A stretch of DNA of 62,993 nt, counting the filler, from Basidioascus undulatus (Eukaryota), in NCBI GenBank assembly GCA_000826855.1. It is 5 parts of 5 records of this genome, joined end to end, with 100 filler letters (N's around TTAATTAATTAA, not from the genome) between each part and the next. Parts side by side here need not be neighbours in the genome. Positions count along the whole stretch, not along the records: positions 54,579 to 62,993 come from JTLS01001394.1; 4 more parts are not named here. One strand, 5' to 3'. The position numbers and the translations under genes were made by a program. Under the pieces are notes generated by a model, which worked only from the letters and a program-made list of their open reading frames with translations, had not been told where the DNA came from and did not search any database. Below are positions 37,538-62,993 of this stretch, piece by piece (positions within the stretch are counted from its first letter, which is position 1; every line of letters starts with the position of its first letter).

Positions 37538-39326
37538 GCGGGGACGCGAGCCCACCACTCTTATCTTTGTTGAGCGAGCGTCTAGCAGACGCGTAGAGAA
37601 AGAAATAGATATGGAGGAAGAAGGCTGTCAGTGCGCGGCGGTCTGGCAGGAAGGAAGAAGCCGGACCGGATCGACTTCATCAGTTCGCTTGTAGGCTGAA
37701 ACGGCGCGACGGAAAGGGGGCGGGGAGAGTAAGAGTGAGTGGGGACTGATCAGCGCGGTGGGAGGCGCGTGCTCGTTGGCGGCGATGGCGAGGACGCGTA
37801 GCGCAATAAAGAGAGCAAGGAGAGGGCGTGCAGGTTGCGAGGAGGGTGAGGGCGAGCAGGCGTTCGGGCGAGGGGAGGATGATGCGCAGAGGGCGAGCGC
37901 GCGACAAATGGGTGCAAATCCGTCCCGATCGTTTGTTTCTTCGTTTCACCTTCGGGAGTGCTGGGTTTCGACTTTTTTTTTGTTCTCGCTCCTCCGCACA
38001 GTCGTTTTTGTGGTGATCGGTCGAGAAAATTGAGGAGGCAATGTAGAGTGGCATGCAAGTGCATAGTGATGGTCAATGCTTAGACGCGCTGGACGATCTG
38101 CTGTAAATTAAACCCTCACGTTCGAAACACAGTCGCGTTCAAAACCCCGCACTGGCATCTCTTCTCCCCAGGTGCACGTCGCTTGTCAGAGCAAGGAGAT
38201 TGAAGGTTACAAGCATTTCCTGTTGTCGCAGCGGCAAGCCTTTTAACTTGATCATACACGACGTGGACAGCCACTGATGGCAATACCCGCCTTCCAACCA
38301 ATGCACAGACGATTTCGAGCATATGCAATTGCTGCCGAGCTGCGCAGGCTGAACTTCGCTGGTTTTTGACATGGTGGACCAGGGGGTTCGATTCCCTCCA
38401 AAGCTCAATACTGACAACGCACTGCATGCGAACGAAGCACACACAATCCATCCAACATACAGCTGAGCGCCGCACGGTACGCAATTCGTCAATCCGCCTC
38501 CATCCCAAACCCCCACCTCCCCATCCCATCCTCCCAACGCCATCACACCCCCACTCCAAACCTCCTCGCAAACGGCCTAGCCTCCTCCCCACTCTGCTCG
38601 CCGGGACCGGGTGGCCGCCGGCTCGATGATTTATACAACGATGCCCCGCGGGTTGAATTCAGCGTCTGTTCGTAGTAATCATGAGCATTGTTCTTTGATT
38701 GCTCTCAGAGGCGTGGAGCGTGTCGCATGCAAGGCGAGAGCCATCGAAGCGGGCATCTGCAGACAGAGACTGCACGAGGAATGCCAGCTGCGTGTACTCG
38801 AGGGATGCACTGGTCCCAACAACTACAGACCGCCGACCAAGTCACAGTGTCAATGCGAGGAAGAATCACAAGTTGGATGGGTATCCAGCGCGGACCATCG
38901 CGCCAACGACGACTTAATAAGAGACTCCGATTCAGCACGCCCAGTAAGCACTGCAGGAAGTCGATTGTCCCGTCAAGAGGTCCTCACCGTCTCGTCTATC
39001 GTCGATGGAGAGCTGCAGATGCGTGAGCTGCGTCTGGATGCCCGGTCTGAAGCGGTCTGCGCCTGGATCCCTGGAATGAGTGCCGTATGCGCCTGCATCG
39101 CTGCGAGCTGCCCCTGCATCGCAGGCAGTGCCGTCGTCCCTGCTCAGGAGCTATCCGACAGTCAGCTCCGAGTCGGGTCTTTTGGACGGCCTTGGGACAG
39201 CACCCGACCGCTGCGCATCTCCAGCTCCCGCTCCGCCTGCGACGTTCGGGAGATGATTGGGTTGGGAGAGGACGGGAGGAATGGGACGGCGGGAGGAGGA
39301 AGGGGAGGGGTTGGGAGAGGATGGAC

Positions 39327-60290: not shown

Positions 60291-61897
60291 CTGTGGTGCT
60301 CAAGGAGGTCAGCACAGCTCTCGCTAACCAGTACCGGAATCCTTCACCCCAAGCACGGCCCGAGCCTGACGGCAGGGCGGCGGCGCCTCGGCGGGCATCA
60401 GGCACTGGGCAAACTATGATAGCTTTCAAGCGAGATATGTGCTGGATATTTTTGGGATCTTTGTTGTTGAGCATGTAACCCAAGGCGAGGGTGATGGCGG
60501 TCTGCAAAAGATTTAACGCTCGACGTCGCGACGACGCCCCCCGTCAAAGCCTTCTTCTGACGTCTACCTCACGGTCGCAAGTCTAATTGATTGACTGACA
60601 TCTTGGTCGTCCACAAAGATACTGATTAATTTAGCACTGGCAGACATACCCGCGGTTTACTTTTACCTTGTATCGGCCGTCGCAGTCTGCTATCCCACCT
60701 CCCAGCGCGATCACACGACTAGTTGTCTTGCTACTCATCAGCGACCATGTTTGCCAAGTTGATCAACAATTCACCCTTGGACCCATGAACCCCTCATCTG
60801 CTGGGTGCGCCCAATTCTTGCAAGACTGCACAGGTGTGCGCTGTTGCGTGCCATGGATGAAATGGCCATGGTTGACATTTCAAGGGGCTGCCGCCTCTTA
60901 CCAGCACGCAAACGGATTCGGAAGCGATGGAGCCCTCATTCGGAATTGACTGTACTTTTATGAAGAACATAGGTTTCCGCTCGCCAATCCGCTCGCCCAT
61001 CGGCAATGTGTTCACCGGAATGAGCCTAACGAAGCGGGACGCCGTTTATATCAAGTACTGAAATCTATCTTCTACGAGCTTAGCAACGTTTCTTTTCTTA
61101 CCTCTCCATGGAATATTCACCTAAGAATAGAGTGTCAGGATATCACATTTTAGCAGAACGCAACGACTGCTGGTGCACAGAGGCACAAAGTCGCGGTGTA
61201 TATCCTTTCCCTTCACACAGCGAGGGTCTTCAGCTCGTAAAAAAATCAGCACTCGACATGTGTCAGAGTCGACGCACCCGGAAAATGTGTTTCTTCTCAC
61301 ACGTACCCCTCTGAAGAACAAAAAAGGACAATCTAGTCAGTCAGCTCGCTGACTTCGTTGGCACGGACTGAACAGGAAAACTGAATGGAAATTTGTACTC
61401 TAGTCGGCTCCGTTCATCATAAATTTCTGTCGTAATCTAGGATGATGGGCTGGTTAGTTTCAAGAGCGTATATAATGAATGGCACTTTAACCTCATCAAT
61501 TAACACTGTAACCTTAATATTATCATGTTGGGATTTCTTCGTAGCTTAGCGACCTCGCACACACTCAATAGTATTTAGCACTATAGCACTCTGTCTTCCT
61601 CAGTCCTCTTCCGTTTTCACACTAGCCCCCTTCTGCTTCGCACTGGCCTACATTCTTCTGGCTGAGATGCCACGCACACACACACTCGCTCAGAGCTTCG
61701 AATAGCGAACAATCATGATCTGCATACCGCTTGCTCTGTTCAAAGCTCCCCAGAGGCACACCGACACCGCTGCATTATATCCAGCTTCTACATCGCTATC
61801 CAGTCAGGACAGCGAGGCAAAAGCGAGGCAAAATAATAGTTATAGAGTACCACTCAGCTTAGCATATCACTGCTGGAGTAAGCAAGCAGTAGTCGAG

Positions 61898-61970
61898 ATC
61901 AGGGGGTTGCAGGTTCGATCCCTGCGTCGGTCATGGCCGGCTGGCTCAATGGTAGAGTATCTGACTACGA
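61898..61970 (+). tRNA. tRNA-Arg(ACG) encoded in circularly permuted order (3' half 61898-61933, 5' half 61935-61970)
   Basis: The rejoined halves fold as a full cloverleaf: acceptor GGCCGGC/GTCGGTC + A73; D-stem GCTC/GAGT with loop AATGGTA; anticodon stem TCTGA/TCAGG with loop CT-ACG-AA; variable GGGTT; T-arm GCAGG-TTCGATC-CCTGC. Confidence 0.88.
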
Positions 61971-61971
61971 C

Positions 61972-61976
61972 TTTTT
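61972..61976 (+). terminator. Pol III oligo-T terminator of the permuted tRNA
   Basis: TTTTT begins 2 nt after position 37 of the 5' half. Confidence 0.7.
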
Positions 61977-62162
61977 GCCGCGGAGACTTCCCACACATAG
62001 GAGTGTGAACAATCCTTCCCCTGAGATTCGTTTTCACAGGCCCAGAGAAGCTGCGGGGTTCCCTCTTTCGACGTGAAAGCGCACAACACCATCTTTCACC
62101 ATCAATACTACCCGGCGAGAACACATTATTTGCTTTCCCATCGCCACTGAACAGCAGCGTCA

Positions 62163-62810
62163 TCACAGTTCCTCCAGCGCCTCCCCACACGCTGCCACCC
62201 CCGCGGCCGCACATGCCTCTTTCAGCCTGCTCAACACCGGCACGGCCTTGTCGTACACCTCCACGCTGAGCAGATAATCCACGACGATCACCTCAAGCCG
62301 CGGAGCCCACTTCTCCTTTTTCTGCAGCATCTCCTCAAAGCTCGCCACTGCGTTCGAAAGGTTGTCCAGGTTCGCCGTGTCGAGGGCGGTCGCGAGCGTC
62401 TCCAACGCAGGCGGAAGTGCGTGAAGGAGCTACAGCTCGATGCCTGATATCGAGCGACTAATAAGGTGTGTGAACTGAAGCTCGACGTACTTGAATGTAG
62501 TGAAGACCGTGAGCGGCCCGTAAATGTATCCAATCTGGCTGAGGACGAGGCGCTCGAGCGTGCCATGGTAGCCGTCAGGCCATCGAAGAAATCATCGAGA
62601 GGGAGGCTGAGTGCATCGGCAGATAGCTCGAGGGCCTGGAGCGCTTTTGGGGCGCATAGGATCCTCAGGATATCCTGAACGGGAATGTCGAACGTCCCAG
62701 CGCTGAAGGTGATGTCCATGATGGTCACGCTCGATGTGCCGTGCAGCGCATACAGCGCGTCGCGCTCTTCATCCGAGAGAAGCGAGTAGTCGGAGATGTA
62801 GAGCGAACTC
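62163..62810 (-). pseudogene. LRR/RNI-like (F-box-type) gene remnant
   Basis: LxxLxL repeats (PKALQALELS, TLERLVLS, LPPALETL, APRLEVIVV) are spread over two frames, with a frameshift near 62570 and an in-frame TAG near 62430. Confidence 0.55.
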
Positions 62811-62993
62811 GATCGTAAGGATCTCTAATGAGAGTAGAGTAAAGCATGGTATGATGTCCGACACGTCAAAGCTACTCTGCTTCGCTTCGCGGGTGAGATG
62901 CCTTGTGCGGAACGCCCAGATCTCTTGGAACGCCTAGTCCTATTCTCAAAATGTAAAAGGGGGGAAAAGAAGAAGAGCGGGGACGGAGGGAGA

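Follow-up and report, generated by a model that had tools for sequence, protein, structure and literature searches.

A stretch of DNA from Basidioascus undulatus (62,993 nt in five joined parts, assembly GCA_000826855.1; the whole stretch is called the window here) contains, at positions 61878 to 61976, a tRNA-Arg(ACG) unit in which the tRNA's 3' half lies ahead of the 5' half. The sequence identifies a circularly permuted tRNA-Arg(ACG) unit of type II at this locus, with the break at 37/38, and contigs from public sequencing runs place it in a dispersed, near-identical, multicopy family. We regard it as an even call whether the copies are type II permuted tRNA-Arg(ACG) genes, written as short units of the RNA polymerase III (Pol III) type and matured via a circular intermediate. 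What makes the unit unusual is its fungal host, its multicopy state, and an intervening sequence of 1 nt.

Structure of the permuted unit

The 36-nt 3' half (A38 to A73, 61898-61933, plus strand), read directly and extracted by script, supplies the 3' strand of the anticodon stem, a 5-nt variable loop, the T-arm with the B box GGTTCGATCCC (61912-61922, plus strand), and the 3' strand of the acceptor stem, and no CCA is encoded after A73. A single T (61934, plus strand) is the intervening sequence that separates A73 from G1. The 5' half, obtained in the same two ways and also of 36 nt (G1 to A37, 61935-61970, plus strand; position 17 is absent), brings the 5' strand of the acceptor stem, the D-arm with the A box TGGCTCAATGG (61942-61952, plus strand), the 5' strand of the anticodon stem, and C32 U33 A34 C35 G36 A37. 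The trailer follows at 61971-61976 (plus strand) as a C and a Pol III-type terminator of five T's, the latter at 61972-61976 and starting 1 nt past A37. The B box precedes the A box, which is the reverse of the conventional order.

When the halves were swapped by coordinate, so that the 5' half was followed by the 3' half, ARAGORN called a 72-nt tRNA-Arg(acg) with an acceptor stem of 7 bp, a D stem of 4 bp, an anticodon stem of 5 bp, and a T stem of 5 bp; four of the stem pairs are G-U. Every position that was checked is standard, including U8, A14, A15:U48, G18, G19, A21, the C13-G22-G46 triple, U33, G53, T54, T55, C56, G57, A58, C61, and the anticodon loop C-U-ACG-A-A, and the break between the halves falls exactly at 37/38. 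Two exact tRNA halves are not a chance pattern. An earlier note on this DNA had described the 3' half upstream of the 5' half with one T between them and CTTTTT behind, four stems that pair after the swap, the break at 37/38, and the lack of partner halves nearby, and our analysis reproduced all of it: elsewhere in the window there was no second copy of the unit and no matching half longer than 12 nt. The same note expected standard finders to miss such a unit. In its native order, ARAGORN indeed made no tRNA call at 61800-62050, with introns allowed or not, and the whole window matched no Rfam family at the curated gathering scores. When the ARAGORN threshold was relaxed, there were 28 calls, the ten matches listed having introns as long as 1560 nt, and we regarded these calls as noise.

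The sole Rfam match at a relaxed threshold was YrlA (RF02553), at 61890-61976 on the plus strand with 32.3 bits and an E value of 2.9e-5. It speaks for a tRNA mimic, a noncoding RNA of YrlA-like topology whose acceptor end is never opened and which binds tRNA-handling proteins without taking part in decoding. In the alignment, the outer stem of YrlA coincides with the leader and trailer, and the unit takes up the model's T-arm, its closed acceptor hairpin, and its D-arm. A native transcript, as modeled, would be closed at the acceptor end, and its termini would be paired. The score, however, is less than half of the RF02553 gathering score of 69, and the second stem of the model is missing from the alignment; we attribute the match to a shared tRNA topology. 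A complete anticodon loop, split at the intron site, would be superfluous for a mimic, and the family-specific junction pattern had no matches in 185,579 prokaryote species genomes. We consider this explanation improbable.

The unit belongs to a dispersed, multicopy family

Assembled contigs from public runs were aligned to the stretch at 80% likeness; such contigs show presence, not absence. The runs X1 and X2 each contain 98% of the sampled words of 60500-62993, and the soil metagenome X3 contains 7%. Summed contig depth, which is not a copy number, came to 1478 and 1928 in the two bins of X1 that hold the unit, compared to 18.5 to 21.7 beside it, and to 3386 and 6066 in the corresponding bins of X2, compared to 29.9 to 46.7, so that the unit lies at approximately 70 to 200 times the depth of its flanks. 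Partial fits accounted for 29 of the 72 contigs aligned in X1 and 25 of the 70 in X2, and the window's own contigs break inside the unit. A 4.2-kb contig of X1 and an 18.5-kb contig of X2 have 61895-61976 at their ends, with six differences, and bridge the A73-T-G1 junction by a 31-letter rule. Short unitigs (53 to 56 nt) that contain the junction have depths approximately 9 to 16 times the single-copy depth, with values of 175 and 298 for X1 and of 473 for X2. Among the matches listed for X1, there were at least eight unlike upstream flanks and at least nine unlike downstream flanks, with flank consensus agreement of 0.47 to 0.63 and one group at 0.92. The unit is adjoined by many different flanks.

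The copies differ little from one another. No variant within the unit was present at 10% or more of the depth, no indels within it were listed, and the single T between the halves is retained in other copies, as contigs across the junction in X1, X2, and X3 show. The X3 evidence includes a 151-nt soil contig that matches 61889-61973 with two differences, has other flanks, and continues with ATTTTG, which contains a T-run of its own. Other X3 contigs match the flanks of the window at 95 to 99%, and X3 must therefore contain a close relative of this fungus; it is independent support for the junction and not evidence of deep conservation. No X1 or X2 contigs with the halves in conventional order were reported, bearing in mind that contigs reveal what is present and not what is absent. 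In X4, which comes from the same sample as X2 and whose library kind is only a guess, depth was found on the unit alone and none on the flanks. One 93-nt contig of X4 runs from 61926-61951 directly into 61889-61955, the two being joined at a shared GTAG. An incomplete unit thus adjoins the leader of a complete one, which could represent a tandem or a recombinant copy.

The unit is, in short, a dispersed, near-identical, multicopy family, and its junction, present in contigs of X1 and X2 and independently in X3, is no assembly artifact. The earlier note had taken the locus for a single odd gene, and that part of its account has to be given up, given that the contigs hold a dispersed family with a conserved leader and terminator. 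Of the doubts that the note itself had raised, that of a decayed tandem pair or one-off insertion is removed by a multicopy family with many flanks. Permuted tRNA genes are usually proposed to originate when a gene is duplicated in tandem and the outer halves are then lost, and the window by itself, with just one copy, would be compatible with a single relic of this kind, left by two ordinary tRNA genes in tandem, or with an artifact of assembly. Against this, numerous differently flanked contigs of X1 and X2 carry the same junction, as does the independent soil run X3; both breaks fall exactly at 37/38, and no half-gene remnants adjoin the unit. We give a relic or artifact hardly any credence.

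Boundaries of the shared unit and the repeat explanation

Among the matches listed, unlike upstream flanks begin before 61878/61879 in six contigs of X1 and two of X2, with other upstream edges at 61885 (one contig), at 61889 (X3), and at 61891 (two contigs each of X1 and X2). Ahead of 61891, the GTAAGCAAGCAGT of the window is replaced by ..GTAAGCAAAGGGGC in one group, and in some copies, which account for a loose end at 61891, the middle of the leader is altered and the blocks GTAAGCAA and AGTCGAG are retained. On the downstream side, likeness ends at 61973-61978, namely, behind 61973 in X3 and at 61975-61978 in X1, X2, and X4. The shared unit as delimited by these edges consists of a leader of 7 to 20 nt, the 3' half, T, the 5' half, C, and the T-run. 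In the window, the leader common to the copies is GTAAGCAAGCAGTAGTCGAG (61878-61897, plus strand), with a minimal common part that starts at 61889 or 61891 and ends at 61897. The leader and the T-run, where likeness stops, are parts that a permuted precursor requires. Edges this sharp and this close to the size of the unit suggest either a family that spread by copying of the transcript unit or a functional unit that alone was kept alike. We also considered an introner (a multicopy spliceosomal intron), the shared unit starting with GTAAGC and containing CTGAC, and rejected it; the flanks are noncoding and rich in stop codons, and the shared unit has no terminal AG.

The multicopy state raises an explanation that was absent from the earlier note: the unit may be a tRNA-derived repeat, amplified in the manner of a short interspersed nuclear element (SINE) or otherwise, whose copies make no working tRNA and owe their intact appearance solely to having multiplied recently. 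One permuted unit, perhaps the product of a rearrangement, would then have been copied many times, with its Pol III transcript as the intermediate or by mobility of some other kind. The depth excess over the unit and its many different flanks are in keeping with such a repeat, as is the uniformity of the copies, and the likeness is bounded at the apparent transcript start (61878/61879) and at the terminator, as it is for retrocopies. Some downstream flanks are alike across X1 and X4 (..TCTCATGCATGA..CCTCAAA), which hints at longer repeats around some copies. The reversed order of the B and A boxes also argues against transcription as an ordinary tRNA gene (PMC3978253, in part). Other features of the unit do not suit a repeat of this kind. 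It has neither an A-rich or simple-repeat tail, ending instead in a T-run, nor a body behind the tRNA part, and no direct repeat spans 61870-61990, so that there is no target-site duplication at the copy in the window. The head of a SINE needs the A and B boxes alone, yet this unit has retained four stems, a 7-nt anticodon loop split at 37/38, and the positions of tertiary contacts. Leader blocks that are conserved around an altered middle also do not look like uniform youth. On balance we hold a nonfunctional repeat, the main alternative, to be possible but rather doubtful, and the two explanations can both hold, in that a working permuted gene could have been multiplied by retrocopying.

Leader, flanks, and proposed maturation

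An AT-rich, TATA-like 18-mer, AAAATAATAGTTATAGAG (61830-61847, plus strand), sits 31 to 48 nt upstream of the start of the likeness between copies, in a window of 53 to 64% GC. It is a candidate for an upstream Pol III promoter element, a role suggested by analogy because algal permuted tRNA genes carry upstream TATA-like sequences (PMC3978253, in part). In other copies, the consensuses of the 30 letters upstream also turn A/T-rich toward the end farthest from the unit, but they agree poorly. Just upstream of the AT-rich stretch, at 61811-61832, lies an exact 11-nt tandem duplication (AGCGAGGCAAA, twice), and the sequence CGAGGCAAAA in its 3' part shows 90% complementarity with TTTTGCCGCG, which comes directly after the terminator of the unit.

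The leader can pair with the region of the anticodon loop and trailer in two registers. In the first, GUAG (61889-61892) is complementary to C32-C35; in the second, AGUCG (61891-61895) is complementary to C35-G36-A37-C-U. An inverted repeat of 61884-61894 and 61963-61973 has 9 of 11 positions complementary. The computed energy of the cloverleaf, -21.3 kcal/mol, falls to -24.9 or -27.6 kcal/mol when leader/trailer helices are added.

We propose a maturation route that is modeled on that of algal permuted tRNAs (PMC3978253, in part). Transcription would start near 61878, perhaps aided by the AT-rich sequence at 61830-61847, and would stop in the T-run. The body of the transcript would fold into the normal L-shape of a tRNA with its acceptor end closed by a tiny loop, and the leader would pair with the anticodon-loop/trailer region, in a helix resembling the one that anticodon and intron form in ordinary pre-tRNAs with introns. 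Measuring from the tRNA body, the tRNA splicing endonuclease (Sen) would cut on the 3' side of A37 and on the 5' side of A38. These two ends would then be joined by Trl1, the fungal ligase, with Tpt1 taking off the 2'-phosphate, to yield a 73-nt circle. RNase P would open the circle 5' of G1, tRNase Z or an exonuclease would trim the single U after A73, and CCA would then be added after A73. Deamination of A34 to inosine would allow the tRNA to read CGU, CGC, and CGA.

Several elements of this route have precedents in the literature. In eukaryotes the Sen endonuclease finds its cut sites by measuring from the tRNA body, and Trl1 is the ligase used by fungi (PMC4090602, in part). For algal permuted tRNAs, the precursor, circular, and mature forms have been demonstrated by reverse transcription-PCR, and 37/38 is the commonest junction among the permuted genes of green algae (PMC3978253, in part). 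The same source notes that the intervening sequence can be down to 1 bp long, as in Thermofilum pendens, and queries how such a short loop is removed, a question that applies equally to the 1-nt intervening sequence here. In its fullest form, our proposal is that this basidiomycete would make tRNA-Arg(ICG), the reader of its commonest Arg codons, wholly or largely from dozens of permuted genes by way of circular RNA, Sen, Trl1, and Tpt1, and RNase P and tRNase Z. We advance this fuller version tentatively and rate it somewhat short of an even chance.

A number of points weigh against permuted genes that work in this way. The depth excess suggests dozens of copies, a high number for one fungal tRNA species by typical fungal tRNA gene counts, and it fits a mobile repeat as well. 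The close likeness of the copies can reflect recent spread and not selection, and the four G-U pairs could mark C-to-T decay. Either X1 or X2 may be the source of the window, which leaves X3 as the one surely independent run. Neither leader register forms the strict pair of 3-nt bulges of the archaeal bulge-helix-bulge; depending on the register, the 3' cut site falls within a 3x3 internal loop or a bulge of 5 to 6 nt. The unconstrained minimum-energy fold (-32.1 to -32.6 kcal/mol) has a z-score of only -1.6, and in it a shifted leader helix competes with the anticodon stem and replaces it. Loose leader/trailer pairing does not exclude cutting, because the eukaryotic splicing endonuclease is held to measure from the tRNA body rather than to recognize a strict local motif (PMC4090602, in part); in the predicted folds it is compatible with cutting yet is not positive evidence for it. 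Finally, fungi use TFIIIC, and here the B box is upstream of the A box. An order of B before A has been called unsuitable for TFIIIC (PMC3978253, in part).

Host and demand for the tRNA

The identity of the host matters because permuted tRNA genes are already known from green and red algae. The window, which has eight open reading frames (ORFs) of at least 300 amino acids in 63 kb and a GC content of 53 to 64%, is eukaryotic and intron rich. A Rad54 exon had 628 relatives; among the best 120 of these 628, the named rows were fungal except for three with plant names. The best rows were Basidiomycota (Tremellomycetes and Agaricomycetes) at 48 to 50% identity over a poorly conserved N-terminal part, and none was closer among the best 120 of 628. 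The Rad54 relatives agree with the earlier note in making the genome fungal, and the host is probably a basidiomycete without a close annotated relative in the collection searched. Not1 gave no guide to the host, because the length limit of the search leaves out the long Not1 proteins of basidiomycetes. In four ORF pieces, CGC, CGT, and CGA made up 89 of 155 Arg codons, and the demand for tRNA-Arg(ACG) would therefore be high.

Two further observations concern the window outside the unit. A 7.5-kb contig of X1 and a 29-kb contig of X2 match 62482-62568 with 15 differences and skip 140 and 155 nt on its two sides (62341-62482 and 62568-62724), which suggests a diverged paralogue elsewhere in the genome, perhaps the exons of a duplicated gene. 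At 38337-38407 (plus strand), a tRNA-sized stretch of 71 nt has a perfect B box and T-arm (GGGGGTTCGATTCCCTC) and five of seven acceptor pairs, without a proper D-arm or anticodon arm, and its Rfam matches reach just 13 to 14 bits (tRNA-Sec and mascRNA). Such a stretch may represent either a tRNA pseudogene in decay or a 3' element with tRNA-like features. The B box in this stretch, at 38385-38395, was considered as part of a second permuted unit and rejected, the weak matches of 13 to 14 bits being all that it offered.

Significance and comparison with known systems

If the reading as permuted genes is true, this fungus would supply the first case of permuted tRNA genes among fungi, and among opisthokonts at large, as well as the first permuted tRNA gene family to have multiplied, possibly by retrocopying of its own precursor. 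Working genes of this kind in a fungus would imply an independent origin within a lineage of standard TFIIIC-dependent Pol III transcription and Trl1-type ligation, and the units would need a transcription route that tolerates a B box placed before the A box. Standard annotation could then silently miss an essential tRNA species in fungal genomes, and the fungus would offer a culturable system for circular tRNA intermediates. Should the family prove to be a mobile repeat instead, it would still be an undescribed tRNA-derived element, permuted and tailless and ending in a terminator.

The family-specific junction pattern had no matches in metagenome contigs. A broader pattern (B box, 19 to 24 nt, A box) was present in at least 121 metagenome stretches, and 123 matches were triaged. 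Nearly all of these 123 were tight tandem pairs of ordinary tRNAs, and some were swapped forms without a proper anticodon arm. The only true permuted tRNA-Arg(ACG) among the triaged matches, also of type II, was L102 (positions 242-376, at the end of a 10.3-kb metagenome contig). It has seven of seven acceptor pairs across the junction, a 6-nt spacer (AAGTAA) between the halves, and, when swapped, a tRNA call with a pseudo-intron exactly at 37/38. A TATA-rich stretch, TATATATAT, lies approximately 45 nt upstream, a leader GUAG is complementary to CUAC, and TTGTTGTTTTTG, with a T-run, comes directly after G37. L102 lies in 40%-GC DNA and is identical to the tRNA of the window at 47 of 72 positions; by these features it is an independent permuted Arg-ACG gene of the same plan and not a relative, and it may be of a known algal type or something new. 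Three soil contigs, L028 (1939-2090), L068, and L094, share ..TACTTCGC.TG.A.GCGGGAG.. near the pattern match. Behind it come a T-arm, an acceptor-like hairpin closed by a GAAA/TTTT/AAA loop, and a D-arm, which make up a permuted tRNA-like module with no anticodon arm. Twelve metagenome loci without a native tRNA at the match had no YrlA at the gathering score. The module of the three soil contigs matched no Rfam family at the gathering score and could belong to YrlA-like RNAs that the present model does not cover.

In agreement with the earlier note, which knew of no fungal example, no fungal permuted tRNA was reported by title or abstract among the open-literature papers listed, subscription papers and supplements lying outside the search. 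No relevant SINE precedent was found in the literature, and the junction 27-mer had no occurrence in the open literature. As is generally known, tRNA-derived SINEs and tailless tRNA retropseudogenes are dispersed, multicopy, and tRNA derived, with transcript-like edges, and the unit shares all of these traits. It differs from SINEs in its reversed A/B order, in having no body, A-rich tail, or (at this copy) target-site duplication, and in its intact tRNA structure. Bacterial YrlA, a Y-RNA-like RNA that carries a tRNA-like module (RF02553), has the same order of elements, with paired termini, a T-arm, a closed acceptor-like hairpin, and a D-arm (PMC4201824, in part). The unit stands apart from YrlA in its score far below threshold, the absence of the Ro60-binding stem, its full anticodon loop in two pieces, its eukaryotic host, and its multicopy nature.

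The reviews consulted, PMC3978253 (in part) among them, place permuted tRNA genes in Cyanidioschyzon, green algae, one nucleomorph, and Thermofilum, and discuss them as relics or oddities of their lineages. The permuted tRNA-Tyr(GTA) of T. pendens has the same 1-nt spacer between the ends of the acceptor stem, and it differs in being archaeal, in its junction at 59/60 (type IV), in its encoded CCA, and in an extra intron (Chan et al. 2011, as cited in PMC3978253, in part). Cyanidioschyzon merolae shares with the unit the gene plan, a TATA-like sequence upstream, and a T-stretch downstream, and its proposed maturation runs through a circular intermediate by means of the splicing machinery, RNase P, and tRNase Z. 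Fungi, in contrast, have TFIIIC, and here one tRNA species is present in many copies. In C. merolae, 11 of 43 genes are permuted, at various junctions, and recognizable A/B-box binding subunits of TFIIIC are missing (Soma et al. 2007; PMC3978253, in part).

Among the closest parallels are the type II genes of the green algae Ostreococcus and Micromonas and of the Bigelowiella natans nucleomorph. The unit differs from them in its basidiomycete, and hence opisthokont, host, in being a near-identical unit in many copies with a 1-nt spacer, in a pairing looser than the strict bulge-helix-bulge, and in being known from sequence alone. In all of them, as here, the 3' half precedes the 5' half without a change of strand, with 37/38 as the junction; the spacer between positions 73 and 1 is short, CCA is not encoded, the upstream sequence is AT rich, a T-stretch lies downstream, and the leader can pair with the anticodon/trailer region (Maruyama et al. 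2010, as cited in parts of PMC3978253 and PMC13578239; the algal permuted genes are tabulated gene by gene in PMC3978253).

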